Source of the DNA: Bacteroidota bacterium
Lineage (GTDB): Bacteria > Bacteroidota > Bacteroidia > Chitinophagales > LD1
Assembly: GCA_947478005.1 (NCBI GenBank)
Contig: CANJVG010000001.1
Span: 17,832 to 81,831, forward strand
Direction: 5' to 3'
DNA: 64,000 bases
Position 1 is the first letter of the stretch. The number at the start of each line of letters is the position of its first letter. Under the pieces are notes generated by a model. The model was not told where the DNA came from. It did not search any database and saw nothing but the letters and a program-made list of their open reading frames with translations. A program made the translations under genes and the position numbers. Of this stretch, positions 6,668 to 52,100 are shown one piece after another.

Positions 6668-6940
6668 TTACTTCCACAAAGTGTCATCCTTTTCGGTAAA
6701 ATCTAAAAAAGGTTCTATGGCCATCTGCATGACCACCCAGGGTGGCAGACGCAACGCGCGGCAGATTTTAAAGTAGGTGCTCATCTGCATATCGAAAATC
6801 CCCCTCTCAGCTTTAGAATAATGCGAAGGTTCAATATCGGCAGCTTGAGCGAATGCACCTTGTTTCGGTGTGTGGTTTATGCGCAAGTTGAGAATGGCAC
6901 TTGCAAGGCATTGGATAGCATGGTTTATTTTCATAAGCAT
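6668..6940 (-). CDS. XRE/Cro-C1 family helix-turn-helix transcriptional regulator (90 aa)
   Basis: HTH_3-like segment KQGAFAQAADIEPSHYSKAERG. The small size is typical of this family. Confidence 0.75.
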   Translation of the reverse strand: MLMKINHAIQCLASAILNLRINHTPKQGAFAQAADIEPSHYSKAERGIFDMQMSTYFKICRALRLPPWVVMQMAIEPFLDFTEKDDTLWK

Positions 6941-7097
6941 CTATTTAGTAGTCCAAAAATAGAATAAACTTTTAACGTTTATGGTGTTTTACCGCCACAG
7001 AATTTATTTTCTATTCTCCAGATTTGTGCCTCGAAATTGTTACTCCGTTCTTTGACAGTCGTGTAATGTTATCCTACAGTAAAACAGTCTTGCAACT

Positions 7098-7512
7098 ATA
7101 CCTTGCAAGCTTGCCATCGAACCACGGAAATTTTTCCGGTCGTTCCGCAAGGTTGCAATCGTGTCACGGAATTTTTCTTGATACAGCCGCAAGGTTGAAA
7201 TAGTATGACGGAATTTTCCGGGTCGCTTCGCAAGGTTGCAATCGCATCGCGGAATTTTTCGGGGCTCACCACAAGGTTGAAATCGTGTCACGGAAATTTT
7301 CTTGATGTTCTGCAAGGTTGAAACAGCCTCACGGAATTTTTCGGGGCGCGCTGCAAGGTTGCAATCGGGTCGCGGAATTTTTCGTGGCTTGCCGCAAGGT
7401 TGAAATCATGCCACGGAAATTTTCGGGGCATGATGGCAAGGTTGAAACAGCCTCACGGAATTTTTCTGCGCCCGATTTCAAGGTTGAAACTATCGCGCGG
7501 AATTCTCCGTGG
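7098..7512. repeat. Tandem array of ten 41-42 bp direct repeats (consensus CAAGGTTGMAAY-N6-7-CRCGGAATTTTTC-N10-12)
   Basis: Unit starts, read directly, are at 7098, 7140, 7182, 7223, 7264, 7305, 7346, 7387, 7429 and 7471. Each unit has two conserved boxes separated by variable segments. Degenerate copies occur further upstream, from about 7056. Confidence 0.9.
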
Positions 7513-7567
7513 CCCTCTATCATGTTTATTATCAGTTAATTATAAATAAAAACCAACAACAAACAAA

Positions 7568-8761
7568 ATGTCTACCAGAAGAAAACCTCAAACGTATAGG
7601 CAGCGTTTTAATGCCTTAAAAGCCGGAAAAGCCCGCAAAGATATGGTGCCTGCCCCGCTTATTATTCCCTATTCAGCCGCCACCATTTTGCGGTTAGATG
7701 CTTTTTATGGCCCTTATAAAATAAAGATTGATGCGGTGGATGCCGCCTTGATTGCGCAGGGTGCCGCCACTCATTTGGTAAAAACCACGCGCAGAAAAGC
7801 GGAGTTGAATATTCTTCACTTTTATTCGGCTATGCAAAATGCTATAGCGCGGGAAGTTTTTCCGGAAGAAATAAGGGCGGGCTATGGATTGGCCTTAACC
7901 GATAACAAGATACCAACGGTGAAAAGCGAGGCCGACATTAGTTTTTGGGGCAATAAAATATTGACAGGCGAAGCAGCGCGCATAGCGGGCGGTGGTGCGC
8001 CTATCACTTTTCCTTCGCTGGCCGATGTAACTACGGCATTGAACAATTTCGAGAATGCCAATTTGCAGCAAGCGAATGCCAAGGAGGTGTATGATTATGC
8101 ACAAGAAGCAGTGGAAGCAGATAATGAAGAATGCGACAAACTGATTTTGAAAATGTGGAACGAAACCGAAACTACTTTTGATGAAGGCAACAAGCCGAGC
8201 ATGAGGCGCAAATGCCGCGAATGGGGAGTGGTGTATGTGCCGATACCTGGCGAAGCACTAAACCCCGATGAATATTCCATTGCCGGCAAGGTGACTGACA
8301 GCGCCACAGGCGCCAACCTGGGCGATGTGGTGATTACGATGGTAGAACCCGATGTGACGGTATTGAGCGAAGGCAACGGCAATTACTATTTAGCCCACCA
8401 GCCCGCGGGCAGCTATACGATACAAATTCACAAAGCGGGCTACCTCGACAAAACCATACCAGGCGTAATAGTTACCGCAGGAGCGGTTACTACCCTTAAT
8501 ATGACCCTGGCCTCGGTAGCCACCACCGGCACGCTTAGCGGCAATGTGTCGGCACCGGGCTTTCCACCGGCTACCGTTAGCATACCCGGCACGGCCTTCA
8601 CAGCCACCACCGACCCTATGGGCAACTTTACTATTACAGGCGTGCCCGCTGGTGTGCAAACCGTGCAGGCATTCATCAACAGCAATCCGGCAGCTATACA
8701 AACCCAAACGCCAACCATAGTGGCAGGTGCCACTACTGCGGTTAGTTTTGTTTTTCCATAG
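7568..8761 (+). CDS. Hypothetical protein with two C-terminal CarboxypepD_reg-like (Ig-like beta-sandwich) domains
   Basis: GKVTDSATGANLGDVVITMVEP...GNYYLAHQPAGSYTIQIHKAGY and GTLSGNV...TDPMGNFTITGVPAGVQTVQAF match the CarboxypepD_reg pattern. The N-terminal ~230 aa look helical, are basic at the start, and show no obvious signal peptide. Confidence 0.7.
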   Translation: MSTRRKPQTYRQRFNALKAGKARKDMVPAPLIIPYSAATILRLDAFYGPYKIKIDAVDAALIAQGAATHLVKTTRRKAELNILHFYSAMQNAIAREVFPEEIRAGYGLALTDNKIPTVKSEADISFWGNKILTGEAARIAGGGAPITFPSLADVTTALNNFENANLQQANAKEVYDYAQEAVEADNEECDKLILKMWNETETTFDEGNKPSMRRKCREWGVVYVPIPGEALNPDEYSIAGKVTDSATGANLGDVVITMVEPDVTVLSEGNGNYYLAHQPAGSYTIQIHKAGYLDKTIPGVIVTAGAVTTLNMTLASVATTGTLSGNVSAPGFPPATVSIPGTAFTATTDPMGNFTITGVPAGVQTVQAFINSNPAAIQTQTPTIVAGATTAVSFVFP

Positions 8762-8809
8762 TAGTTAGGGCGCTCCTGTTGGTCGCTGACCAACAGCAAG
8801 CATTCAGAA

Positions 8810-8844
8810 GTTCCACTCCCACAAGGAGTGGAACTTTTTATTTT
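8810..8844 (+). terminator. Rho-independent terminator
   Basis: Stem GTTCCACTCC / GGAGTGGAAC with loop CACAA, followed by TTTTTATTTT. Confidence 0.7.
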
Positions 8845-8893: not shown

Positions 8894-11386
8894 ATGAAGA
8901 ACCTATTGCGCTCGGTTGTATTGTCTTCTGTCTTGTGTCTAATGTCTTTTGTCTCTCACGCGCAGTGGGTGAGTATTCCCGATACGAATTTTGGGACGTG
9001 GTTGAATACAAATAACTATAGTCAATGCTTGCAAGGAAATAGCACGGTAGGCTGGCAGATGGATACGACATGTGATGCTGTAATACATGCCGCCATTGTT
9101 GGTGTGAGTGGTCAAAATATTCATGATCTTTTTGGTATTCAATATTTTGACGAGCTTACTTCCCTTCTTTGTGCACATAATAATCTAACTTTCTTACCTC
9201 CACTTCCTAAAACATTATATTACTTAGATTACCGTTCAAACAATATAACTTCCTTTCCAACTCTATCCGATAGTTTGCTGTATCTATACTGTCTATCCAA
9301 CAATATTAGCTTATTGCCTTCCCTTCCAAGTGGTCTGATTGATTTTAATTGTAGTAATAATCATCTTACCACCTTGCCTCCTTTGCCAAATAATTTGAGA
9401 TGGCTCTCATGTAGTGAAAACCTCCTTCACACACTTCCAACCTTACCAAATTCTATCGAGTATTTAACCGTTTGGGGTAATCCACTTGGGAATAGTTTAC
9501 AGTTGCCTCCACATTTAATCGACCTTTATTGCGGTTACGACTCTTTAACCGTTTTACCCTCCTTGCCGATAACATTGCGCTTTCTTCGTTGTGATGGCAA
9601 TCAGTTATCTCAATTACCTCCTTTGCCCGATAGCTTGTATTATTTAAACTGCATTGGTAATCAATTGACCTCATTGCCGGTTTTGCCTGATAGTTTAAGA
9701 GTATTGGATTGTGTGGGTAACAACCTCACAACGCTGCCTAGCTTGCCCAATCATCTTTATTTTATTGTGGCCGACTATAATCAATTAAGTTCCTTGCCTG
9801 ACCTGCCTGATTCTTTAACGTCTTTCTACTGCAGAGACAATCCCAATCTTTTCTGTTTGCCTAGGCTTAAAAAAATTAGGGAGTTCTATTTCACTAACAC
9901 CGGCATTACCTGTTTGCCTAATTATCCTCAATCGAATACTTTGAGTATCCCTTCTTTAAATACAGTTCCACTTTGCGATATTTTCAATATACATAGTTGC
10001 GAGGTTTACTGGAACATCAGCGGTAAGGTTTACATAGATAGTAATGCAAATTGTTTGAATGACGTGGGTGACCGCGCCTTTTCGAATTTTAAAGTTCAGC
10101 TTTATCAAAATGGAATCATGCAACAGCTACAGAATACACTGGAGGACGGCTCCTATTCTTTCGTTACTGGCTTAGGCACGTATGCTTATTCTTTAGATAC
10201 AGCCAATTTTCCGTTTGTTTTAGCCTGCCCCGATAGTGGCTATTATACTTCAGTCATTTCCGCGCTCGATTCTTTTGATACCGATATGGATTTCGGTTTG
10301 CATTGCAAACCAGGTTTTGATTTGGTGGCTCAAAGTATTTCAGCTATTCGTTTTAGACCAGCCAATGTTACGACCATAAATATCTCCGCTGGAGATGCCA
10401 CCAATTTCTACAATGCCCACTGTGCAGCAGGCACAAGCGGCAGTGTTCAATTAATCATAAATGGAGCAGCCCATTATGCCTCTGCTGCAAGCGGAGCGCT
10501 TATACCTACAAGCATTGTAAACGATACCATCACCTGGAGCATTGCAGATTTTGGTGCGGTTAATTTCTTTACAGCTTTCAATATCAATGTAGCTACCGAT
10601 ACTACGGCTGTTTTAGGTTCGCAGATTTGCTTTACCCTAACAGTAAACCCCATTGCCGGAGATAATAACCCTGCCAATAATATTCTTACCCATTGCTTCA
10701 CGGTAGTTGGTTCCTTCGACCCTAATGAGAAAGAAGTGTACCCCGCAGGCAATATAGATACCGCTACCCATTGGCTTACCTACACCATCCATTTCCAAAA
10801 CACCGGCACAGCCGAGGCGCAGCATATCTACCTAACCGATACGCTCGATAGTAATATAGATGCCGCCAGCTTTCAGCTACTCGCCTACAGCCACCAACCC
10901 ATGGTTCAGCTAAAAGGCAACAACCTCCGCTTCAACTTCACCAACATCAACCTCCCCGACAGCAACACCAATGAAGCAGCGAGCCACAGTTATGTTCAAT
11001 ACAAAGTCAAACTAAAAGACAACCTACCCCTCGGCACCAATATAACCAACACAGCCTTTATCTATTTCGATTTTAATAGTCCGGTGGTTACGAATACTAC
11101 GAGCAATACCATTGCTTTGGCAACAAGCGTTGCTAATCTCGGAATTCGGAATGCGGATTTCGGATTGAATCCAAATCCCGCTACTGAGTCGGTTAGAATA
11201 TCTATCGATGAAAGTATGATTGGCAGCAATCTTACGATCACCGACCTGACAGGAAGAGAAGTATTGCATTCGGCTGTTCAAATCCGCAATCCGCAATTCG
11301 ACATCCGCAATCTATCCCCTGGCGTTTACTTCGTAACTCTCGAAAACAAAACCGGGAGAGTGACGAAGAAACTCGTGAAGCAGTAA
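8894..11386 (+). CDS. Secreted leucine-rich-repeat protein with a T9SS type A C-terminal sorting domain
   Basis: Signal peptide, then twelve consecutive exact 20-residue LRRs (LxxLxCxxNxLTxLPxLPxx, aa 88-327). A beta-sandwich region follows (FDPNEKEV...YTIHFQNTGTAEAQHIYLTDTLD). The C-terminus NPNPATESVRISI...GVYFVTLENKTGRVTKKLVKQ is typical of T9SS CTDs. Confidence 0.85.
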   Translation: MKNLLRSVVLSSVLCLMSFVSHAQWVSIPDTNFGTWLNTNNYSQCLQGNSTVGWQMDTTCDAVIHAAIVGVSGQNIHDLFGIQYFDELTSLLCAHNNLTFLPPLPKTLYYLDYRSNNITSFPTLSDSLLYLYCLSNNISLLPSLPSGLIDFNCSNNHLTTLPPLPNNLRWLSCSENLLHTLPTLPNSIEYLTVWGNPLGNSLQLPPHLIDLYCGYDSLTVLPSLPITLRFLRCDGNQLSQLPPLPDSLYYLNCIGNQLTSLPVLPDSLRVLDCVGNNLTTLPSLPNHLYFIVADYNQLSSLPDLPDSLTSFYCRDNPNLFCLPRLKKIREFYFTNTGITCLPNYPQSNTLSIPSLNTVPLCDIFNIHSCEVYWNISGKVYIDSNANCLNDVGDRAFSNFKVQLYQNGIMQQLQNTLEDGSYSFVTGLGTYAYSLDTANFPFVLACPDSGYYTSVISALDSFDTDMDFGLHCKPGFDLVAQSISAIRFRPANVTTINISAGDATNFYNAHCAAGTSGSVQLIINGAAHYASAASGALIPTSIVNDTITWSIADFGAVNFFTAFNINVATDTTAVLGSQICFTLTVNPIAGDNNPANNILTHCFTVVGSFDPNEKEVYPAGNIDTATHWLTYTIHFQNTGTAEAQHIYLTDTLDSNIDAASFQLLAYSHQPMVQLKGNNLRFNFTNINLPDSNTNEAASHSYVQYKVKLKDNLPLGTNITNTAFIYFDFNSPVVTNTTSNTIALATSVANLGIRNADFGLNPNPATESVRISIDESMIGSNLTITDLTGREVLHSAVQIRNPQFDIRNLSPGVYFVTLENKTGRVTKKLVKQ

Positions 11387-14154: not shown

Positions 14155-14239
14155 AGTTACAGAACGCAATGTTGAAAAAATATTTTGATGAACTGTAAAT
14201 AAAACAACTTTATTTGCTGTCGCTAAAGGTGGTGAGTGT

Positions 14240-14400
14240 ATGTTACAATACATAAACCATAATAGGGAATCAGGTGTAAATCCTGAGTAGTACCCGCTGC
14301 TGTAAGCTCTTTCAAAGTTTCTATCTCACAAAGCCACTGATGCAAATCGGGAAGGCGATAGAAACAGAGTAAACCAGAAGACCTGCCTTCGGCGCAATTA
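14240..14400 (+). promoter_or_regulatory. Cobalamin (B12) riboswitch
   Basis: AATAGGGAATCAGGTGTAAATCCTGAGTAGTACCCGCTGCTGTAAG matches the conserved core GGGAA..GGTG.AAATCC...CCCGC.ACTGTAA. GCCACTG and GGGAAGGC are present, and the B12 box is AACCAGAAGACCTGCC at ~14372-14387. It lies directly upstream of a B12-transport-like operon. Confidence 0.9.
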
Positions 14401-14511
14401 TTTTCAAAGCTTTCGGGAAGAAAGGCTGAGAACTGGAACAGTGCACGGTTTCATTTCCCAATCTCATTTTCGTAGCTGAACACTTTTTTAAAACAAAAAA
14501 CACATTCAGCC

Positions 14512-32938: not shown

Positions 32939-33109
32939 TATTTTAGATGGAAGATTTAATATTCAAATACACCAGCCAGTATTTGTATTCCATATTCAAT
33001 TTCAAACATTACCTCCCCCAATCTTACTTCTGTCTCTAAACGAAGACAAACAAAAATGGAAAACTAACGACCATGTTCGAACTATAAAATAGTTTTGGGC
33101 ATCGAGCGC

Positions 33110-33841
33110 ATGATTACTCCACCTATTCCACTTCATGTTTCTGCACTTTTTATTGCCCTGGTATTTGGCATTGCATTTTTCAGCATTATAGCGGTGCACG
33201 TGTGTGGAGTTAGAGGCGGTTTGGCTTTTGCAGATCGCAGACGAAACTTATCGGTTACTATTCTTTTTCTATTGGTATGGCTGGCTTTTACAAATATCAT
33301 TGCCCTGTCGGGCTTGCTGGCTAATTTTGCCTCTATGCCGCCCATGTTTCTGCTGGTAGTATTGCCTCCTTTTTTATTCCTTGCAGTATTGATGCAAGCC
33401 AAGACCTTTAACGATTTGTCGGAAAATATCAGCGGTTTCTGGTTTGTGTATGTGCAATCGTTTAGAATATTGATGGAGTTTATCCTTTGGCTGCTCTATC
33501 GTTACCAGATTATTCCCGTGCAAATGACTTTTGAGGGGCTCAATTTTGATATACTCGTTGGCTTATCGGCTCCGTTTGTGGCTTATTACTGCTTTGTAAA
33601 AAAATCGTGGAGCTGGAAAGTAGCCCTTACCTGGAACATTTTCGGGCTATTGTTTTTAGCCAACATTGTTACCGTTGCAGTTCTTTCCACTCCGTATCCG
33701 TTCCGCCATTTTATGAATGAACCCGCCAACACTGTTATTTTTAATTTTCCTTTTGTATGGCTGCCTTCTCTGGTGGTGCCTTTTGCGCTGCTGCTTCACC
33801 TTATCTCTATCCGCAGGCTGCTGCGCTACAAAGCAGTTTAA
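33110..33841 (+). CDS. Hypothetical polytopic membrane protein
   Basis: About seven hydrophobic segments. I prefer the ATG at 33110 to the track's TTG at 33095. Confidence 0.6.
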   Translation: MITPPIPLHVSALFIALVFGIAFFSIIAVHVCGVRGGLAFADRRRNLSVTILFLLVWLAFTNIIALSGLLANFASMPPMFLLVVLPPFLFLAVLMQAKTFNDLSENISGFWFVYVQSFRILMEFILWLLYRYQIIPVQMTFEGLNFDILVGLSAPFVAYYCFVKKSWSWKVALTWNIFGLLFLANIVTVAVLSTPYPFRHFMNEPANTVIFNFPFVWLPSLVVPFALLLHLISIRRLLRYKAV

Positions 33842-34019: not shown

Positions 34020-34244
34020 TTTGTATCCTTCTATATGAACTTTGTATCCAAAATGGATACAACTGTATCATAAAAGATGACAGATATATCCATACAAGAT
34101 ACCACTTTATCCTTTTAGATGACATGCGTATCCTTAGATGATACCACCTTATCCTTTGTTGATACCGCCTTATCACTTTTGGATACAACTGTATCCTTTG
34201 TAGATACACCTTTATCAACTTTGGATACAAATAGACCTGCTTTC
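34020..34244. repeat. Tandem array of about ten 21-bp units, each containing a GATAC-N4-5-TATC dyad
   Basis: GATAC/GATGA anchors at 34056, 34076, 34098, 34118, 34140, 34161, 34182, 34203 and 34224. TATC anchors at 34066, 34087, 34108, 34129, 34150, 34171, 34192 and 34213. The perfect palindrome GGATACA-AC-TGTATCC lies at 34181-34196. Confidence 0.85.
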
Positions 34245-34414: not shown

Positions 34415-36985
34415 TTATTCCTCAGGACTCACGTCTGTTGATGCCAATTCTCCATCTTCTTCGGCATTGTAGTTCAGTTTGCCGTTTTCTATTTTAGCCA
34501 CAGCCGCAATCTGGTCTTTCGGATTGAGTTTAATCACCCGCACTCCTTGCGTAGCGCGACCCATTACCCGCAATTGTTCTACCGCCAAACGAATAGCGAT
34601 ACCCGATTTGTTGATAATCATTACATGGTCATTGTTCGTCACGTTCAATATGGCAATCAGGTGACCGGTTTTTTCGGTAACGCTGATGGTTTTCACACCC
34701 TTGCCTCCACGATTGGTGATGCGATAGTCTTCAATATCAGTTCGCTTGCCATAACCCTTCTGCGAAAGAACCATGATGGTTTCTTCTTTGTTGTCAGGGT
34801 TCACAGTAATCATACCTACTATTTCATCGTTTTCTTCTTCCAAAGTAACGCCTCTAACACCTACCGAGTTACGACCTACGGCTCTAACCTTTTCTTCGTT
34901 AAAGCGAATGGCCTTGCCGGCTTTGGTAGCTACTACTATTTCGCTTTTGCCATTGGTCATACTTACCTGCACCAGTTCATCGCCTTCGCGAATATCAATC
35001 GCGTTTACACCGCCCGTGCGCACATTGCTGTAAGCGCGAAGAGTGGTTTTCTTAATAGTTCCTTTCTTGGTGCAGAAAATAATGCTGTGATTATCGAGGT
35101 AGTCATCTTCTTTCAGATTCTTAACCGGGATGTAGGCCATGATTCGGTCTTCTTTCGGAATGCTGATAAGATTTTGAATAGCACGGCCCTTGCCTGTCTT
35201 TTCTCCTTCCGGAATTTCATACACCTTCAACCAGAAACATCTTCCTAATTCCGTAAAGAATAAAATGTAGTTGTGGTTGGTAGCCATAATCAAATGCTCA
35301 ATGAAGTCTTCATCGCGGGCGCTACTGGCTTTGCTTCCTCTTCCGCCACGGTTCTGCATTTTATAATCGACAGAAGGCGTGCGTTTGATATACCCCAAAT
35401 GCGAAATAGTAACTACCACTTCATCATCGGCAATTAAATCTTCCATATTGAAATCGCCTGAAGAGTATTCGATACTCGTCCTGCGCTCATCCCCATACTT
35501 GGTTCCTACTTCAATCATTTCATCCTTGATGATTTGCATCCGCAAAGGTTCTTCTGAAAGCACTCTGTTCAACCACGCAATGGTCTTCATCAAATCGTCA
35601 TACTCTGCGCGAATCTTGTCTCTTTCCAATCCCGTTAAACGCGATAAACGCATTTCGAGAATAGCCTTCGCCTGAATTTCGCTGAGTCCGAATTGTTTAA
35701 TCAATCCATCCTTTGCAATATCCGTATCAGCAGAACCGCGAATGAGTTTAATAACTTCATCTAAGTGGTCGAGGGCAATCAACAAACCTTCTAAGATATG
35801 CGCACGCTCTTGGGCTTTCTTCAATTCCCATTTAGCGCGTCTGATAACCACCTCACCCCGGAAATCAACGAAATGCTTAATCATATCTCTGAGGTTCAGG
35901 ATATAAGGGCGACCATTTACCAGCGCCACATTGTTTACCCCAAAAGATGTTTGCAGAGAAGTCAAGGCAAATAGTTGGTTCAACACCACATTGCTGATAG
36001 CATCGCGTTTCAACTCAATAACCACGCGAATACCGTTACGGTCCGATTCATCACGAACCTCACTGATGCCTTCAATCTTCTTATCATCGCCCAGTTCAGC
36101 AATCTTCTTCACCAATTCCGATTTTACCACTTGGTAAGGAACTTCATTGATGATGATATGCTCACGACCGTTTTCCTGCGTTTCAATTTCTGCCTTACCG
36201 CGAAGAACCACTCGTCCTCTACCGGTCATGAGCGCCTGACGAACGCCTTCATAACCGTAGATAATTCCCCCTGTCGGGAAATCGGGAGCTTTTACAATCG
36301 TGATTAATTCTTCAATCGTAATATCCTTGTTGTCGATGTATTTGATGATAGCCTCTACCACTTCGGTTAAGTTGTGGGGAAGCATATTCGTTGCCATACC
36401 TACCGCGATTCCCGATGCTCCGTTTACCAGCAAAGTAGGGATTTTGGAAGGTAAAACAGTAGGCTCTTCGAGAGAATCGTCAAAGTTCAGACGCATATCC
36501 ACCGTATCCTTTTCAATATCGGCCAGAATATCTTCGGCTATTTTGCGAAGGCGAGCCTCTGTATAACGCATTGCCGCTGGCGGGTCATTATCAATACTAC
36601 CAAAGTTACCTTGCCCATCTACCAAAGGATAGCGCAAACTCCAGTCCTGTGCCATACGCACCATGGCATCATACACGCTCGAATCTCCGTGCGGGTGATA
36701 CTTACCGAGTACTTCCCCTACGATACGCGCACTCTTCTTGTGCGGCTTGCCGGGCGAAAGCCCTAGTTCGTTCATCGCAAAGAGAACTCTGCGGTGAACG
36801 GGTTTTAATCCATCGCGCACATCAGGAATAGCACGGGAAACGATAACTGACATAGAATAATCTATGTAGGCCGTTTTCATTTCGTCCTCTATATTAATAG
36901 GTGTAATGCGCGGTAAGTTGCGAAGGTTTTGGTCTTGTCCGCCAGTATTTTCGGGCGGTGTTGGGGGATTGAGTTCGTCTGCCAT
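34415..36985 (-). CDS. gyrA: DNA gyrase subunit A
   Basis: [49 protein letters not shown] and [10 protein letters not shown], with C-terminal beta-pinwheel repeats. Length 856 aa. Confidence 0.97.
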
Positions 36986-42950: not shown

Positions 42951-45623
42951 TTAATGAGGGAACTTGAAAATGTCTTTGGCTTTATTGGCGGCATCTTTTG
43001 CTACCTTGTCGGCTGCGTCTTTTGCTAATTTATTGGCTGCGTCTGTGGCGGCTTTTTGTGCCGCATCCTTGGCCTGTTGTTCTAACTGAGCTTTTTGTTT
43101 TTGCAGTTCTTCTTCTCCACGTTTCTTCAAATCATCTATTTGTTTTTTGGCTTCTTCTTCGGCTTTCTTTTTTAGATCATCCACCACACCCTTCGCCATG
43201 TCCTTACCAGATGAACCACCGGTTGTAACCTTTGAGAGACTAACGATTGGCTTAGCAGTAGTGCCGGTTACTTTGAAGAGGAACCCAATTACATCGGGCA
43301 TCGCAGAACCTAAGCCCGGAATTTTGGAAAGTAAACCTTGTGCATACGCAGTTGCAGGCCCGAGTTCTTTACTTGGCACATCCATGCGCATATCGTAGTT
43401 GATGCTTTGGTCGAAGCCGTTGGAGCCGGCTACGTTTACGTTATAGCCGTTTCCGAATTTTAAATCAGTCGGGTCAACAAATACTTTTCCGTCTTTGAAT
43501 TTGAGATTGGCTGTGGCGTTTTTCAATTCGAGATTTTGCAGGGCGGGGATTTTAGAAAGGGCAGTTACCTTTTCTAAGATGGGGAGACCTACGACTCTGG
43601 CCGAAGGAATTTCTACTTTACCTTCTCCTGTAAGCGAGTTGTAGTCAACGCTCATGTCGGGGTTGAGTTTGCCACTGCCTTTTAAGTTGCTGGAGAAACT
43701 TCCTTGGATGTATTTGATTACCGGAGCCATCTTCTCGCTCATGCCAACCGAAGTATAGGTTTTCTGCACATCGAAGTTCTTGATATCGTAAGTGAATGAT
43801 ACGTCAGGATGCTTGAGGTTCTTGGTTACATACTTAGCGCTGATGTTGGCGCTGCCGCCTAATAGATTGGCGAAGAGGTCGTTCAGATTGATGGCTTCGT
43901 CTTTAATCGTTACCTGTCCTTTTACATTTTCGAGAACCATTTTTTCATACAGGATTTTTCCGAAAGAAGAGTTGGCGGTGAAATCGATGTGAGCCGGAAC
44001 TTTGAAGTACTCAGTTTTTGCAGTGTCAACAGCCTTGGCGGTGGCAGGTGCGTTTTCATCTTTCTTCAACCATTCGTTGGCATCGAACTGGGTGGAGCGG
44101 AGATTGATGGTGCCTGATAAATCGCCCGTGCCGAAGGCGTAAGCCATGAAGTTATCAAGCGTTCCGTTGGCGTTGAAGTCGCTTTTGCCGATGGCGGATG
44201 AGAAATTATTGAGTGTGACGTTCTGTGGATTGAAGGTCATTTGCATATCCATCACGCGCACAGGCATTGGGGTTTGTTTGCTGTCGTAAACGAGGTTGGT
44301 TACTTTCATATTTCCTCCGGCACGAATGGCTGCGTAGTTCTTTTTGTCAATGTCGCTTTTCTTTCCCGCGAAATCGAGATTGATGTTGAGGAGACCCGTC
44401 ATGGTTTTGAGGCCTTCCATAGGGTAGAACTTCGGAACGCTGGATAAATCGACTTTGCCGCTGATGTTGGCCACCACATTAGGGTCACTAACGGGTGTCT
44501 TTACATTTATTTTAGCATCCACCGGATCGGTGCCGGCTTCCAGGTGGAGCTTGGAAATGTCCACCACCGTTAAATCTAAATCACCCTGGGGCTTGGTGAT
44601 GTTGGTGGCGATGAAAATGTTCTTTACCGCAACCGGTAAGGATGGATATTGGAACATACCATTATTTACCTTGAGGTCGAGATGGAAGGCGGGATAGTTT
44701 TTGTCTTTGTAAGTTCCCTTGACATCGCCAGCGAGGGCGAGGCTTCCGCTGGTTTTAATCTGGTCGAAATCTTTTTTGTAAACGGCAGGAATGAGCGATA
44801 GTATGTTTTTGAACTCCGCTTCTTTGGACTTGAACTTTACATCGAGATTCATTTCGTCTTTCTTGTTCTGCACAAAGCCATCGAACTGTAAGCCGAGAGC
44901 GTTGAGGGCGATGGAGTTTTCTTTGAAGGTGTATTTGCTGTTCGCATTATCAACCGATACATTTATTTCGGCATCGAGCTTAGCCCGGCTGAGGTAGGAA
45001 ACGGCTCCGCTGCGGTAGGTGAGTTCCGCAATGTTTGTTTTGGTAACAAAGTCATAAAGGTCGCTGGTTACATCGCCACGGCCCGCGAAATCAAGGTCGT
45101 GAATCTGCGCGAAGGAGTTTCCTTTTTTGTCATCATACTTTATTTCTCCGTTCTCAATCTTGTAGCTTTTTATTTGAAGCGAGAAGTTGGAAGTAGAGCT
45201 GGTGGTGGTTGATTTTTCACTGCTCGGTTTTACAATATCCCAATTGGCTTTTCCGGCTTCGTTTACTTTGGCGTTGATGTTTGGTTCAATCATGTTGAGG
45301 GCGATGAGTTTGTATTGTTCGCCTTTGATAACGCTCATTAAATCAACTGTGAAGTTTATGTTCTTCAGGTAAACGAGGGTATCGCCTTTGAAGTCATCTA
45401 CACCAACCACGCTGAGGTCGTTTAGCGAGAAGCTGAAATTGGGGAAGCTGCGCATTAGGGAGAGGCTGAAATCGCCATAGTCAACCTTGGCAGTGAGGTA
45501 GTTGTTTATTTCTTCTTTGACGCGGGCGTTTATTTTGTCTTTGAACAAAAAGGGAAGGGCTACGACAGCGGCTACTAGCAGGATGACGAAGATGGCGAAG
45601 CCTATCAGAATTTTTTTACCCAT
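42951..45623 (-). CDS. AsmA-family envelope protein with a C-terminal Lys/Ala/Glu-rich tail
   Basis: N-terminal TM anchor (ILIGFAIFVILLVAAVVALPFL), a long beta-rich body, and the final ~85 aa KKKAEEEAKKQIDDLKKRGEEELQKQKAQLEQQAKDAAQKAATDAANKLAKDAADKVAKDAANKAKD. I chose the ATG at 45623. Confidence 0.78.
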   Translation of the reverse strand: MGKKILIGFAIFVILLVAAVVALPFLFKDKINARVKEEINNYLTAKVDYGDFSLSLMRSFPNFSFSLNDLSVVGVDDFKGDTLVYLKNINFTVDLMSVIKGEQYKLIALNMIEPNINAKVNEAGKANWDIVKPSSEKSTTTSSTSNFSLQIKSYKIENGEIKYDDKKGNSFAQIHDLDFAGRGDVTSDLYDFVTKTNIAELTYRSGAVSYLSRAKLDAEINVSVDNANSKYTFKENSIALNALGLQFDGFVQNKKDEMNLDVKFKSKEAEFKNILSLIPAVYKKDFDQIKTSGSLALAGDVKGTYKDKNYPAFHLDLKVNNGMFQYPSLPVAVKNIFIATNITKPQGDLDLTVVDISKLHLEAGTDPVDAKINVKTPVSDPNVVANISGKVDLSSVPKFYPMEGLKTMTGLLNINLDFAGKKSDIDKKNYAAIRAGGNMKVTNLVYDSKQTPMPVRVMDMQMTFNPQNVTLNNFSSAIGKSDFNANGTLDNFMAYAFGTGDLSGTINLRSTQFDANEWLKKDENAPATAKAVDTAKTEYFKVPAHIDFTANSSFGKILYEKMVLENVKGQVTIKDEAINLNDLFANLLGGSANISAKYVTKNLKHPDVSFTYDIKNFDVQKTYTSVGMSEKMAPVIKYIQGSFSSNLKGSGKLNPDMSVDYNSLTGEGKVEIPSARVVGLPILEKVTALSKIPALQNLELKNATANLKFKDGKVFVDPTDLKFGNGYNVNVAGSNGFDQSINYDMRMDVPSKELGPATAYAQGLLSKIPGLGSAMPDVIGFLFKVTGTTAKPIVSLSKVTTGGSSGKDMAKGVVDDLKKKAEEEAKKQIDDLKKRGEEELQKQKAQLEQQAKDAAQKAATDAANKLAKDAADKVAKDAANKAKDIFKFPH

Positions 45624-45802
45624 GGCGATTGTATTTTTAGCGAATGTAGTGAATGACAATAATACAATGGTTTGTTTAGAAATGAATTTTCTGTTTGTGG
45701 TTTATTGTTTTTTTGTTTTTCGGTTCGTCCGGAATGAGGTTCTCTCGGAGGCGCGGAGTACTCGGAGGTTTTTTGAGTGGAAACGATGGGTGACGACTGT
45801 CA

Positions 45803-45985
45803 TAGCGTCAGTGAGAGGGGTAATAACGGCAGAATCACGTGCGATACGGAGCGTGAGAGGAGCGATTCGGGACGCGACATGCGCAATACGGAGGGCGAGA
45901 GGAGTGATTCGGAGCGTGATACGTGCAATACGGAGAGTGAGAGGAGTGATTCCGAGCGTGACACATGCGGTTCGGAGGGTTAGAG
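45803..45985. repeat. Tandem repeat with 42-bp period (about 4.3 copies), resolvable into alternating 21-bp half-units
   Basis: GTGAGAGG/GCGAGAGG anchors at 45811, 45853, 45895 and 45937 (exact 42-bp spacing). The half-units are ATACGGAGnGTGAGAGGAGyG and ATTCGGAGCGTGAyAcrTGCr. Confidence 0.85.
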
Positions 45986-46455: not shown

Positions 46456-48375
46456 ATGTCAGAAGAAATTTTAGAAACAAAAGAAGAAAAAGTAGAACAG
46501 AAGCCGGTTGCGGTGGTTTTGCATGACGATTTCGATTGGAACGTAGACAAGAGAAACGTGGTGACTTATACCGAAGCTGAGCGCATTCGCTATGATGCCG
46601 AGTATTCTTCTACCCTGAAGACCATCGAAAACGATGAGATTGTGAAGGGTATTGTAGTGGCATTGACCAATACCGATGTGGTCTTGAACATTGGATTTAA
46701 ATCAGACGGATTGGTTCCGCTTTCAGAATTCCGCGATGTGGAAGATTTGAAGGCAGGCGATGAGTTTGATGTGTATGTAGTGAATAAAGAAGACAAGAAA
46801 GGTATTTTGCAACTAAGCCGCAAAAATGCCCGCACTATGAAAGCGTGGGAAGAAATCGTATCGGCTCATAAAACAGGTATTGTGGTGCAGGGTAAAATTA
46901 TTTCGAAAACAAAAGGCGGTCTTATCGCTAATATTTTCGGAGTGGATACTTTCCTTCCGGGTTCTCAGATTGATGTGAAACCTATTACAGACTATGATGT
47001 GTATGTAGGTAAAACAATGGAGTTGAAGGTGGTGAAGATTAATGAAACCATTAAGAATGCCGTTGTATCTCACAAAGCATTGATTGAGTCGGATATCGAA
47101 TCGCAACGCGAAGCTATCATCGGTAAATTGGAGAAAGGACAGGTATTGGAAGGAACTATCAAGAACATTACTGATTTCGGTGCGTTTATCGACTTGGGTG
47201 GTGTGGATGGATTGCTTTACATCACTGATATTTCGTGGGGCCGTATCGGACATCCGAAAGAGGTGTTGGAACTGAACCAGAAGCTGAATGTGGTTGTATT
47301 GGATTACGATGATAACAAGAAACGTATTTCGCTTGGTTTAAAACAATTGCAACCGCATCCATGGGATACTTTGGATAAGGATATTGAATTGGGCAGCAAG
47401 GTGAAGGGCAAAATCGTAAACATTGAAGATTACGGTGCATTCCTGGAAATCACTCCTGGCGTTGAAGGTTTGGTTCACGTAAGTGAAGTTTCCTGGAGCA
47501 ATACTCCGGTGAACAGCCGCGAATTCTTCCACAGTGGCGATACCCATGAGGCTGTAGTAATGACGCTTGACCGTGAGGAAAGAAAAATGTCGCTTTCGTT
47601 AAAGAGAATGACAGAAGACCCTTGGGTGAAGATTGCAGAAAAATTCCCGATAGGAACCAAAACCAGAGGTACGGTTAAAAATATCACTCCTTATGGCGTG
47701 TTTGTAGAATTGACTGAAGGAATCGGAGGAATGGTTCACATCAGCGATTTATCATGGACAAAACGTTACAGCACCCCTAATGAATTTACCAAAGTAGGTA
47801 GCGAATTAGATGTTGTAGTGCTTGATATTGACAACGAAAACCGCAAACTGACCCTTGGTCATAAGCAAATTGAGGAAGATCCATGGGATTCATTCGAAAA
47901 TGTATTCCCTATCGGTTCTACCCATGAAGCAACCGTTCTTAATGCAGATGATAAAGGCGCTACAATTCTTTTGCCTTACGGCTTAGAAGCATTTGCTCCA
48001 AAGAAACACTTAGCTAAAGAGCAGGGTGGTTTCCTGGCTGCTGATGAAAAAGCAACCTTCAAAGTATTAGAGTTCAACCGCAACGACAAACGTATTCTGG
48101 TTTCTCATACCCGTATTTGGGAAGAAGTGAAACAGGAAACTGAAGACACCGAGCGTAAGGAAAAGAAGGTAGAACGCGAAAAGACAGCGAAGGTGGTAAA
48201 AACCCTACAGAAGAATGTAGAGAAAACAACCCTTGGTGATTTGAGCGCTTTGACTGAGCTTAAAGAAAAGATGGATAGCAAATCAGCCGCAGACGCAGTG
48301 AAGAAACTCGAAAAGAGAGAGGAAGCTGCTAACAATGCTTCGGCAGAAACTACAGACGATACAAAGCCAGAGTAA
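46456..48375 (+). CDS. rpsA: 30S ribosomal protein S1
   Basis: Six S1/OB repeats (e.g. GKIISKTKGGLIANIFGVDTFLPGSQ, GTIKNITDFGAFIDLGGVDGLLYITDISW, GKIVNIEDYGAFLEITPGVEGLVHVSEVSW), plus a Lys/Glu-rich C-terminal tail. Confidence 0.95.
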   Translation: MSEEILETKEEKVEQKPVAVVLHDDFDWNVDKRNVVTYTEAERIRYDAEYSSTLKTIENDEIVKGIVVALTNTDVVLNIGFKSDGLVPLSEFRDVEDLKAGDEFDVYVVNKEDKKGILQLSRKNARTMKAWEEIVSAHKTGIVVQGKIISKTKGGLIANIFGVDTFLPGSQIDVKPITDYDVYVGKTMELKVVKINETIKNAVVSHKALIESDIESQREAIIGKLEKGQVLEGTIKNITDFGAFIDLGGVDGLLYITDISWGRIGHPKEVLELNQKLNVVVLDYDDNKKRISLGLKQLQPHPWDTLDKDIELGSKVKGKIVNIEDYGAFLEITPGVEGLVHVSEVSWSNTPVNSREFFHSGDTHEAVVMTLDREERKMSLSLKRMTEDPWVKIAEKFPIGTKTRGTVKNITPYGVFVELTEGIGGMVHISDLSWTKRYSTPNEFTKVGSELDVVVLDIDNENRKLTLGHKQIEEDPWDSFENVFPIGSTHEATVLNADDKGATILLPYGLEAFAPKKHLAKEQGGFLAADEKATFKVLEFNRNDKRILVSHTRIWEEVKQETEDTERKEKKVEREKTAKVVKTLQKNVEKTTLGDLSALTELKEKMDSKSAADAVKKLEKREEAANNASAETTDDTKPE

Positions 48376-48660: not shown

Positions 48661-50061
48661 TCAGAACTCAATAGCACTGATGGTTCGGTGAGCAATATCA
48701 GATGCTGTGGCAGCTTCACAAAAAATAGTCCTAGCCATGTTTCCCGACCGAAACCACTGTAAAACGAGCGTCTGGGGTACACCAGCCGTAACCACGATTG
48801 GTTTAGTGAAAGAAATATTCCAAGCAGTAACAACTCCAGTTGTGGAGTTCAAATCTTGGCCCGCAGAAACACTTCCACCCACCGAAACACCATTGACCAT
48901 CAGGCGGGCGAAAACATTCTGATGAACATTTGTACCTGTAGGGTCGCTTCTTCCTGAAATAGTAAATGATACCAGTAAATTAGATTTTACAGGGGTGAAA
49001 GTCAGGTTCAATCCAGTTGAAACATAGCCTCCTCCGTTCATACTGATATCGGTGGAACCGGTAATCGAGTGAACTAATACAGTAGGTATGGTAGTTGTAA
49101 GTGTGCCGCAAGGGTCAGTAGAGGAAAGTAAGTTAGTGCCGGTAGAATAAGATAAAGCTGTGTTGCAATCGCCAAAGCCGGTGGGACCGGTAACGCCTAT
49201 AGCACCGGTGGCGCCTGTAGCACCTACTCCGGTTACACCTGTAATGCCTTGCACCCCAATAACCCCCTGTGCGCCTGTGACACCTTGTATGCCTGTAGCT
49301 CCTTGTGCCCCTGTAACACCTGCAATACCTTGAAAGCCTGTGACGCCTTGCAGACCTGTAGCCCCTTGAATACCGGTAGCACCCACTGAGCCCGTAGCTC
49401 CGGTATTACCTTGATTGCCCGTGGCACCTGTTGCACCAGTGTTGCCATTTAGCCCGGTAGATCCCGTAAGCCCCACTGCTCCTGTGGCACCTGCAACACC
49501 TTGAGTGCCTGTTGCTCCTTGGATTCCGGCACCCGTTATTCCCTGAATCCCCTGAGCTCCTGTATTTCCAGCCGAACCTTGTGCTCCTGTTATGCCTTGT
49601 AGGCCTGTAGGTCCTGTGGTTCCATTTAACCCGTCAATACCTGAGGGTCCTGTAGAACCTGGGAGGCCCGGCAGCCCATTTGTCCCGCTCAGTCCTGTTG
49701 GTCCAATAATCCCGGCTGTTCCGGTGGCTCCATTTAGACCTGTTACACCAGGGGTCCCCTGAGGGCCCGTAGCACCCGCTGGTCCGGACAGCTGACAAAG
49801 CGAAGTCCAACCGCTACCGACCGCGTAATAGAAAAAGCAATTAAAATTTATATCGTAAACTAAGAGGCCATTTGCAGGGGAAACGATTGCTAAACGTTGT
49901 CCGGTCGTCATTCTCGGAGCAATAAAGCCTTTATCAGTAGCCTCCAGATGCAACACTGAACTGGCATCGGGATTGGCGAGTCCAATGCCCACATTATTTT
50001 GGGCTGTTGCTGAGAACCCGATGAGGAGAAGAAAGTAAAGGAGGATGTGGATATTCTTCAA
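48661..50061 (-). CDS. Collagen-like (G-X-Y) repeat protein, paralog A, with conserved N-terminal module and globular C-terminal domain
   Basis: TTG start and signal peptide. Conserved module [19 protein letters not shown]...[18 protein letters not shown]. About 205 aa of G-X-Y triplets (aa 93-297, DNA ~49171-49785), rich in T/Q/N at Y, with a few interruptions. The C-terminal domain is ~170 aa. Confidence 0.85.
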
Positions 50062-50378: not shown

Positions 50379-52100
50379 TTATCTATAATGAACAATAAGT
50401 GTCATAGCTCCGGCCGTGGCATCTGTAAATCCATCGCCACCAATATTAACCGTTGCTCCTATTGTGCCTCCGAATCTCCTAGACCGAAAATCAATAGTAT
50501 GTGCACCGGCTCCCAGGACTACCATACCCATAATTGATCCGTTGGCAAAAGAGTTAGAGTTAGAGTTAACACAGGTAATTCGAGCAAAACCTCCGTAATT
50601 CATTAAGACTCCATCCACATGAAAAGCTATATCCACGGTATTGTATAAACCTGCGGTAGTAGCGGTATTCAGCATACCAATAGAGGCAAAACAAAAGACT
50701 TCAGCCGTTTGCCCGGCAGGGACAGTTATTGTTTGAGTCATGTTCGGGTTAACCACAAAAGCAACTCCGGCAACGTTTGTTCTAGCAGCAGTATTAATAA
50801 CATGATAATATTCAGTTCGTGGTTCTAACACCGTGATATCGCCATTAGCATCTACGCCCAGATTACGGGGGTATGAGTTGGTAGGAAATGTTGCGACCGG
50901 ATTAAAGCCTGCTGCATTTCCAAAGGCATCTACACGAATGGTAGGTTGTTTAACGGTAAAGGCCGGATTGGTTACCCCTCCACCATAGGTGCCGGCAGCG
51001 GTAATATTACCTTGGCGAACCTGCCCTGAACCGGCACTTGTGCTATAGATACCACTAATGTGTAAGGTTCTTACAGGAGCAGGCAATCCTATCCCTACAT
51101 TTCCGTTAGCCAATATACGAGCCTTCTCGATATTATTTGTTCTGAAAACTAAATCAATATTATCCGTGGTACCTAAAAAATTAGTCGCAGGTGCTGTTCC
51201 TGAATTGCCTGTTATTTTCCAAAACACACCGTTCGCATCCGAAGGTGCCCACTGAACTCCGTTGAATAACAATACCTCGTTTGGCAAAGGAGCGGTAGCA
51301 CTAATTCCAATCCCCTGTAACCCCACCACCGTAGGATTAGGATAAATTCCGGATAAATCGCCCCCGGCAGCCCCCAAAGGACCGGTAGGGCCAGTTGCAC
51401 CGGTGTCTCCTGTAAAGCCGGTTATTCCCTGTGCTCCTGTAATACCCTGTAGACCCTGAACGCCTGTTACCCCTTGAATTCCTTGGGCACCGGTAATACC
51501 TTGAATACCTTGTACTCCTGTAACACCTTGGATTCCTTGTGTGCCAGTTACTCCTTGAATGCCGGTGGGACCTGCGATACCCTGCGCGCCCGTAGCTCCT
51601 GTACTTCCGTTAACACCTGTCGGACCTATGTTTCCGTTCAAACCATTAATACCTGTAGCTCCCGTAACACCAGTGGTACCTGTTGCTCCGGCATTTCCAT
51701 TTAAACCATTCGTGCCTGGAACACCTGCGCTTCCTGTTGCTCCTGTTACACCGTTACTGCCGTTTGCACCTGTAACACCCTGTACTCCCTGCACGCCTGC
51801 TGGACCGGAAGGACCGGCATTTTGGCAAAGAGAAATCCATCCTCCACCTGTTGTGTAATAGAAGAAGCAATTAAAATCTAGGTCATAAACCAAAAGACCA
51901 TTTGCGGGTGCAGCTATAGCCGAGCGTTGGACAGTAGTCATACGAGGTGCTATAAAACCCTTATCGCTAGACTCTAAATGAAGAACCGCGCTGGCGTCAG
52001 GATTTGATAAACCGATACCAACATTGTTTTGTGCCATTACAGAACTACTTGGCAGTAAATGAAAAAAGCAGAAGCAAAGAAGGAAGAAAATATTTCTCAT
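50379..52100 (-). CDS. Collagen-like (G-X-Y) repeat protein, paralog B, with an extended C-terminal region
   Basis: Same N-terminal module as paralog A ([19 protein letters not shown]...[17 protein letters not shown]). G-X-Y region at aa ~96-246 (DNA ~51363-51815). A ~330-aa C-terminal region follows and includes [43 protein letters not shown]. Confidence 0.85.

Follow-up and report, generated by a model that had tools for sequence, protein, structure and literature searches.

Tandem repeats close to bacterial promoters are known from the 7-bp variable repeats upstream of the Haemophilus influenzae hmw adhesin genes, and sites phased by two helical turns are known from the LytTR regulators AgrA, ComE, and PlnC, which use 9-bp direct repeats spaced by 12 bp and thus recurring every 21 bp. 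Direct repeats with longer units are found in type III toxin-antitoxin systems, where 36-nucleotide (nt) ToxI repeats lie upstream of toxN (PMC5086642), and in sopC of the F plasmid, where a 43-bp unit is directly repeated 12 times and SopB binds a 16-bp inverted repeat within every unit (PMC3177203). Here, we describe a tandem array in a 64,000-nt stretch of DNA from a Bacteroidota bacterium (assembly GCA_947478005.1, contig CANJVG010000001.1, positions 17,832 to 81,831), referred to below as the window. The array occupies positions 7098 to 7519 of the window on the + strand (its polarity is relative to the downstream gene) and consists of ten units of 41 to 42 bp, placed head to tail upstream of a gene coding for a protein of 397 amino acids (aa). 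The array is real, noncoding, conserved, and dynamic, and it is a conserved attribute of the whole Bacteroidota gene family to which the 397-aa gene belongs. On the evidence of sequence, we tentatively read it as a fast-evolving array of multiple operators, in helical phase on double-stranded DNA, that may control the 397-aa gene, an interpretation to which we give a little less than even weight.

The periodicity of the array was established by three approaches that agree with each other. Tandem Repeats Finder (TRF) reported, over positions 7105 to 7504, a period of 41 bp (8.3 copies, 71% matches) together with a period of 123 bp (2.9 copies, 82% matches). Repeat finding recovered nine in-register copies at a spacing of 41 to 42 bp, and lags 41 and 42 gave base autocorrelations of 0.56 and 0.49, respectively, with approximately 0.27 at other lags. 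The ten phased repeats reported in a preliminary description of this DNA are therefore real, and its unit starts (7098 to 7471) and its flanking distances, namely 157 bp to the start of the open reading frame (ORF) at 6668 to 6940 and 55 bp to position 7568, were also correct. In the register of the first conserved box described below, the units start at 7105, 7147, 7189, 7230, 7271, 7312, 7353, 7394, 7436, and 7478. The units are 62 to 88% alike, the closest pairs being the sixth and ninth (88%), the fourth and seventh (83%), the fifth and eighth (81%), and the second and fifth (81%). The mean identity is 79% at a distance of three units versus 71 to 74% at other distances. This higher-order structure of three units, which had been proposed before, does exist, as the 123-bp period also indicates, but it is modest.

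Each unit contains two conserved boxes, as initially described. Box A, (G)CAAGGTTG(A/C)AA, occurs once per unit between 7105 and 7489 (+) and forms the dyad (T)GCAA-GG-TTGC(A), whereas box B, C(A/G)CGGAA(A/T)TTTT(C), occurs once per unit between 7125 and 7510 (+) and forms a second, different dyad, CGGAA..TTCCG, of the CGGAA-W-TTCCG-like type. The centers of the two boxes are 20 to 21 bp apart. Units 2, 4, and 7 have the complete box A dyad, unit 1 has GCAAGCTTGC, and in the units with TTGAAA the right arm is degenerate. The box B dyad is perfect in units 1 (CGGAAATTTTTCCG) and 3 (CGGAATTTTCCG), and unit 10 reads CGGAATTCTCCG. The combined pattern CAAGGTTGMAA-N5-9-CGGAAWTT was found eight times in the array, with none expected from shuffled sequences. 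A search of the window for GCAAGGTTGMAA with at most one mismatch gave 11 sites, of which ten are in the array and one, at 14166, is at chance level, so that, with the exception of this single-mismatch site, box A is unique to the array within the window. A near-palindrome of 30 bp, ATCATGCC-ACGGAAATTTTCGG-GGCATGAT, lies on box B of the eighth unit (7405 to 7434, unstranded). The perfect 8-bp inverted repeat noted earlier exists as the arms of this near-palindrome; it runs from the eighth unit into the ninth (7405 to 7412 and 7427 to 7434), however, and not in the seventh unit, to which it had been assigned. It is specific to the eighth unit, not being kept in the other units or in the related locus L119.

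The 397-aa protein has 66 relatives in the databases, all of them from uncultured Bacteroidota where the source is named. The genomic loci of these relatives (designated by L numbers) were fetched, and TRF was run on the DNA upstream of each gene. A tandem array was found just before the gene at 52 independent loci, with a TRF period of 42 bp at 48 of them and of 41 or 43 bp at the other 4, and this constancy strengthens the earlier proposal that the boxes lie on the same face of the DNA. Several of these arrays also give TRF periods of 84 or 126 bp, which is indicative of higher-order structure, and at two loci beyond the 52 (L143 and L183) the period was 84 bp only. The arrays have 2 to 14.5 copies (median, 5.6), and their ends lie at a median distance of 85 bp from the start codon, the distance being 30 to 130 bp at 39 loci. 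They are near-universal in relatives with at least approximately 35% protein identity and mostly go undetected in the most distant ones (25 to 33%). No relatives of the gene were found in the viral contigs of IMG/VR.

The period is kept over the family, and the sequence of the units is almost completely different between loci. The same two boxes are present in L119, where the protein is 60% identical to that of the window, and are not kept in L120 (58% identity). An alignment of the 19 units of the window and L119 showed that AAGGTTG and CGGAA are invariant and the linkers variable, the invariant columns being A3, A4, T8, and G9 in box A and C21, G22, G23, and A25 in box B. At the DNA level, the window and L119 are alignable (69%) over a stretch that begins within the array, crosses the leader, and enters the gene, and nothing upstream of the array is alignable.

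Despite the divergence of the sequences, an architecture is shared across the family. Taken in the direction of the gene, many units follow the order CCC(C), a dyad, (G)ACCAT, a GGAA(A/G) box, and TAGCCC, with the GGAA box approximately 16 bp after the center of the dyad. Motifs also show strand bias relative to the gene (AAAAAGT, 7 versus 0; CCCAT, 10 versus 1). The dyads are often framed as TCTnnnn-NN-nnnnAGA, with arms of 5 to 9 bp and spacers of mostly 0 to 2 bp, which would be as in the operators of dimeric helix-turn-helix (HTH) proteins. Dyads with arms of at least 6 bp and spacers of at most 4 bp were found in 21 of the 52 consensus units, versus a mean of 2.8 in shuffled sequences (maximum of 9 in 200 trials), and a second dyad with arms of at least 4 bp, approximately 21 bp away, was found in 12 of the 52, versus 1.7 expected. 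The clearest arrangement in this respect is that of L210, a paralogue in the genome of L119, where two perfect palindromes with 6-bp arms and 2-bp spacers, AACCCA-AC-TGGGTT and CTTCCG-TT-CGGAAG, are exactly 21 bp apart and alternate every 21 bp with 7-bp linkers.

The number of units is not fixed. L129 and L131, which come from different samples, show a single difference over 1,942 otherwise identical bp, namely one 42-bp unit in the array. Four other assemblies of the organism of the window are identical to the window and end inside the array. Units are commonly 85 to 98% alike within an array and divergent between loci, which indicates concerted evolution and rapid turnover of units.

Taken together, these observations would fit a conserved upstream control region of the 397-aa gene in which ten or so operator-like modules are stacked. 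A module of 41 to 42 bp corresponds to four helical turns, and its two short palindromes are approximately 21 bp apart; all sites are therefore on one face of the helix. Dimeric DNA-binding proteins may occupy the dyads cooperatively, and the bound array would then set, by activation or repression, transcription from a promoter that may lie in the A/T-rich stretch of approximately 50 bp between the last unit and the ATG. In the lineage of the window, the most plausible candidate for the binder would be a divergently encoded HTH protein of XRE type. Slippage or unequal exchange would add or remove units in whole 42-bp steps, and such steps would preserve the helical phase and make the output tunable.

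This candidate binder is a 90-aa protein encoded on the − strand at 6668 to 6940. Its assignment as an XRE-type HTH protein is weak but reproducible (Pfam HTH_3, E value of 0.006; PADLOC HTH_VI, E value of 2.4e-5), and it matched only itself in a database of 5.8 billion proteins. An exact Bacteroidetes-type −7 box, TATTTTTG, at 6954 to 6961 (−) is placed 14 to 21 bp before the start of the ORF and is likely its promoter. The dyads of the array lie in the region shared with this divergent gene, and a divergent XRE-type gene recurs at L133 (E value of 7e-11) and L210 (E value of 5e-8) and, with a weaker HTH match, at L119. The window therefore belongs to a subclade in which a small XRE gene faces away from the array and the array precedes the family gene, which is how a local regulator and its operators are classically laid out.

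At the other loci also, a DNA-binding regulator is often encoded directly before the array, and its class varies from locus to locus. Response regulators with GerE or LytTR outputs adjoin the arrays in L148, L152, L157, L160, and L170, a receiver-only ORF is found in L163, a LytTR protein in L132, and an AraC protein in L188. In L201 (4705 to 5268) and L204 (4890 to 5453), of marine or freshwater origin, the divergent gene codes for a 187-aa protein with weak HNH_3 and AP2-like matches (65% identity between the two), which would be an unusual candidate regulator. The preliminary description had proposed an array of operators for the adjacent HTH protein. The recurrence of the divergent XRE-type gene speaks for this part of the proposal, which does not extend to the loci where the neighbor is of the LuxR, LytTR, AP2, or AraC class or where none is recognizable. 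Binding of the array by the protein of 6668 to 6940 may be regarded as the best surviving option among the earlier readings, and as an unproven one.

Several observations weigh against a multi-operator array. Many units of the window have degenerate dyads only, such as those with the TTGAAA variant of box A. The class of the neighboring regulator differs among loci, and in approximately 40% of them (for example, L120, L095, L123, L129, and L203) there is no recognizable regulator. The HTH proteins of the window and L119 gave no BLASTP alignment, although both boxes are common to the two loci, so the binder may be encoded elsewhere. The downstream 397-aa protein itself has no DNA-binding fold. 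Furthermore, no promoter could be located: at 49 of the 52 loci, the stretch from the array to the ATG has no exact Bacteroidetes −7 box (TAnnTTTG), a motif that makes an insensitive test, being present upstream of only 6 of 26 control genes of the window. Finally, arrays of 41 to 42 bp with a very similar box A are found before housekeeping genes, such as tpiA, fabD, and alaS, in other Bacteroidota, and one unit can recur at several loci of a genome; this points away from a locus-specific operator and toward either a factor of wider action or a cassette that moves or recombines.

These additional arrays were recovered by scanning one genome per species for two box-A-like motifs 39 to 43 bp apart, a pattern that biases the resulting set. 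At least 118 loci matched, many of them being unrelated repeats of 7, 8, or 21 bp. The set is heterogeneous, with many coding 21-bp repeats, and no common neighbor was found among the 118 loci. In the Flavobacteriales metagenome-assembled genome (MAG) M30B41, two arrays on the same scaffold, 1.26 Mb apart (L096, 1976 to 2386, and L094, 3303 to 3549), share a 41-bp unit (CAAGGTTGCAACGGTCCGTAAAAATTTTGAAATGTCCTTCG) in 10 and 6 copies, respectively, and a 5′ flank of approximately 75 bp with a palindrome. One of them precedes tpiA and the other fabD, and together they form a dispersed array family within one genome. The MAG LinL4_bin-1161 carries the same 42-bp unit at L010 (761 to 928) and L050 (3280 to 3405), where alaS follows one of the arrays and a distantly related gene of the 397-aa family follows the other, and three loci of one Prevotellaceae MAG (L004, L027, and L068) share a 42-bp unit.

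Two more intergenic arrays are present in the window itself. The array at 34040 to 34230 has a period of 21 bp (42 bp in TRF) and approximately nine dyads of the GATAC-N-TATC type, such as GGATACA-AC-TGTATCC. Its neighbors, each with the 3′ end toward the array, are an unannotated 248-aa ORF (33095 to 33841, +) and gyrA (34415 to 36985, −). The array at 45836 to 45985 has a 42-bp unit made of two 21-bp half-units and is strongly purine-rich on the + strand. It is located between a 902-aa ORF without a Pfam match (42951 to 45659, −), which it precedes by 180 to 330 bp, and rpsA (46456 to 48375, +). The 902-aa and 248-aa ORFs were considered as paralogues of the 397-aa family and are unrelated to it. 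Given these further arrays in the window and in other Bacteroidota, the phenomenon may exceed the 397-aa gene family. It is conceivable, if somewhat unlikely in our judgment, that phased dyad arrays of 21 or 42 bp are general, undescribed enhancer-like promoter modules in Bacteroidota, with genome-specific unit families, concerted evolution, fast change of copy number, and several promoters served per genome. If so, dedicated array-binding factors would coat one face of the DNA, and the arrays before the 397-aa gene family would be the best-conserved instance.

In decreasing order of plausibility, the other explanations are a largely sequence-independent spacer, acting as a variable-number tandem repeat (VNTR) or by curvature, an RNA transcribed from the repeats, a stack of promoters for alternative sigma factors, and a centromere- or iteron-like site. 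A contingency spacer would involve no sequence-specific binding: slippage would regenerate the repeats, only whole-turn steps of 42 bp would be tolerated between an upstream element and the promoter, and copy number, spacing, or the curvature due to one A/T tract per unit would modulate a surface-related gene. The one-unit difference between the otherwise identical contigs of L129 and L131, the breaks of the other assemblies inside the array, the concerted evolution, and the presence of one A/T tract in each unit are all consistent with it. A neutral spacer, however, is not expected to be strongly enriched in dyads, to keep two boxes invariant across two species while their flanks vary, or to have an oriented architecture common to a gene family, and we consider this explanation unlikely. 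An RNA would take the form of a long 5′ leader or a separate noncoding RNA, the units of which either bind protein, acting as a sponge or partnering the downstream product in the manner of a type III antitoxin, or fold as repeated hairpins. The array is directly upstream of the gene in a fixed orientation, like the ToxI repeats before toxN (PMC5086642); its + strand folds better than its − strand (−137 versus −107 kcal/mol); units 2, 5, 7, and 8 can, as read from the sequence, pair around box B with G-U pairs on the + strand; and the N terminus of the 397-aa protein is arginine-rich. Against this, among 49 arrays folded on both strands, the better-folding strand flips between loci, and several arrays, being C/A-rich, have hardly any structure on the gene strand. 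The minimum-free-energy fold of the whole array gave no repeated hairpin pattern, and Rfam gave no match at the gathering threshold and, at E values of up to 10, a single match within the array, at chance level. A helix around box B paired in 44.7% of the cells over the 19 units, versus 47.1% in shuffled sequences, and the covariation check proposed earlier on homologous units thus gave no support to it. Mismatches in the dyads are G-T in 45 cases and A-C in 37, without strand bias, so there is wobble tolerance on neither strand, and most dyad spacers (0 to 2 nt) are too short for RNA loops. No terminator-like site was found between the array and the gene (7513 to 7567), and the protein is not ToxN-like. 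Nothing in the array supports an RNA signal, the structured leader or small RNA array suggested at first finds no backing, and we judge this option to be distinctly improbable.

The idea that each unit is a promoter for an alternative sigma factor of the extracytoplasmic function (ECF) type, multiplying initiation toward the gene, agrees with the conserved polarity of the units relative to the gene, the recurrence of GGAA-type boxes, the lack of a canonical sigma-A −7 box before the gene, and the resemblance, on reading the sequence, of TTGAAA and TTGCAA to a −35 hexamer. To our knowledge, however, sigma-A of Bacteroidota does not use TTGACA, and a sigma-70-type scan of the array found nothing periodic. 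No pair of −35- and −10-like motifs at a promoter-like spacing, including GGAAC-like and CGT-like elements 16 to 17 bp apart, is conserved over the 52 homologous arrays, and, unlike promoters, the conserved elements are palindromic. The stacked ECF promoters of the preliminary description are thus unsupported and, in our view, highly improbable. A sigma-54 promoter (GG-N10-GC) was also considered and was rejected because its spacing fails across loci. Least credible, and in our view extremely improbable, is the explanation that the array serves a mobile replicon in partition or replication. Its attraction is the form of the array, which is strikingly like that of F sopC (PMC3177203), whereas the Pfam scan of the flanking genes found no ParA, ParB, or Rep, the context is that of a Bacteroidota chromosome (an RpoD-like sigma factor, a dapA-like gene, gyrA, and rpsA), the chromosomal surroundings of the arrays vary and the gene family directly downstream is always the same, and relatives are absent from the viral contigs searched. 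Plasmid iterons are repeats of 17 to 22 bp by a rep gene or an origin; here the period is 41 to 42 bp, twice that of iterons, and the neighbors are the HTH ORF, a sigma factor, and a CarboxypepD_reg gene without a rep gene, so the iteron sense of the earlier proposal is not supported either.

Two further possibilities were discarded. A coding array is rejected because the 41-bp units break every reading frame and the ORFs over the arrays of the relatives lie on different strands and have no Pfam match, in agreement with the noncoding nature assumed at the outset. The array is not of the CRISPR type, in which repeats of 25 to 40 bp alternate with unique spacers of comparable length: its units are placed head to tail and the variable segments have only 6 to 12 nt and are related between units at a distance of three.

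The array is bordered at its 5′ edge by decayed repeat-like sequence (7040 to 7104, +), recognized by sequence reading and an inverted repeat, that contains the half-sites TCGTGTAA, CTTGCAAC, and CTTGCAAG. At its 3′ edge, an A/T-rich leader (7520 to 7567, +) runs from the last unit to the ATG; it does not contain an exact TAnnTTTG and is partly alignable with L119 and L120. The 397-aa gene (7568 to 8761, +) codes for a helical N-terminal domain and two Ig-like CarboxypepD_reg domains. In the AlphaFold model (predicted local distance difference test score of 90 to 91), an all-helical bundle of approximately 230 aa is followed by the two Ig-like domains. The N-terminal domain belongs to no Pfam family and has no significant fold match in the PDB (best E value of 0.05 for this domain alone), and no signal peptide is evident. 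A profile search of the PDB matched the C-terminal domains only, and the Foldseek search with the whole model was dominated by the Ig-like domains. PHROGs, NCBIfam, and PADLOC returned nothing useful on function, and no database record was found for the exact product. In a search of 1.84 billion representative proteins, the profile retained the C-terminal columns, so that CarboxypepD_reg repeats overwhelmed the results and no usable family size was obtained.

Directly after the 397-aa gene there is a strong terminator-like hairpin with a 14-bp stem and a T run (8806 to 8838, +), followed on the same strand by a gene for an 830-aa protein (8894 to 11386, +) with leucine-rich repeats, DUF7619, and a C-terminal sorting domain of type IX secretion. 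The relatives of the 397-aa gene are often followed by the same kind of type IX secretion cargo gene elsewhere; in the window, the hairpin makes cotranscription with this gene doubtful. Further away, a cobalamin riboswitch is present at 14210 to 14404 (+) (Rfam RF00174, 94 bits), and tandem repeats at 49186 to 49380 (18 bp) and 51424 to 51560 (27/54 bp) are located inside long ORFs of the − strand, where they are probably coding, collagen-like or Gly-rich sequence.

The usual view of bacterial promoters is that they have between one and a few operator sites. An element of 5 to 14 phased double-dyad modules, present across a gene family, would be a distinct regulatory architecture, in which the 42-bp period is kept over deep divergence, the sequence changes between loci, and units are gained or lost between near-identical strains. 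It would offer a simple means of tuning or switching surface- and type IX secretion-associated genes in environmental Bacteroidota, and it flags an uncharacterized protein family, with a helical N-terminal domain and Ig-like domains, as one that may be tightly regulated. The repeat arrays also explain assembly breaks and spurious ORF calls at such loci, including the ORFs predicted over the array. The relation between array length and output would provide a clean experimental handle. No description of such arrays was found in literature searches; their kind, that of tandem protein-binding sites or promoter VNTRs, is known, and the family-wide 42-bp double-dyad form is previously undescribed.

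In form, F sopC is the closest known object, given that both have about ten head-to-tail units of 42 to 43 bp, a short dyad in each, variable linkers, sites on one helix face, and a variable copy number. The genetic context nevertheless rules out membership. A partition centromere combines repeats carrying inverted repeats with parA/parB or parR/parM genes next to them on a plasmid or prophage, whereas the array of the window, which does have such repeats, is chromosomal, has no ParA/ParB operon, and is directly upstream of one protein-coding gene family. It also has two different dyads per unit, and its function would be transcriptional rather than segregational. The antitoxin arrays of type III systems are similarly direct repeats of approximately 36 to 45 nt that directly precede a protein gene in the same orientation, with sequences that differ between families. 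Unlike these, the array of the window has more copies that are more diverged, and it shows no terminator before the gene, no RNA structure or strand signal, and no ToxN/AbiQ-like protein; for proteins of the ToxN, AbiQ, CptN, and TenpN types, Pfam returned only CarboxypepD_reg, PADLOC no toxin, and the PDB no significant match to the modeled N-terminal domain. The sites of LytTR regulators share the 21-bp, two-turn periodicity, and LytTR-domain genes adjoin the arrays in L132 and L152; the dyads described here, however, are not 9-bp direct repeats, and there is no LytTR gene beside the array of the window. As with the hmw repeats, the array is upstream of a surface- or secretion-associated gene, and in its family the number of units differs between near-identical genomes, potentially tuning expression, but the unit is of 42 bp instead of 1 to 7 bp and contains conserved palindromic boxes, and the array is conserved across a gene family over deep divergence. 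The operators of XRE, Cro, and C proteins and the 7-2-7 sites of NarL/LuxR-type regulators have arms of 5 to 8 bp and spacers of 0 to 2 bp like those found here, and they also share an adjoining divergent small HTH gene and the integral-turn spacing of sites that favors cooperative binding. In contrast with the one to four sites of these known operators, the arrays described here comprise 5 to 14 tandem modules that are homogenized and variable in number.

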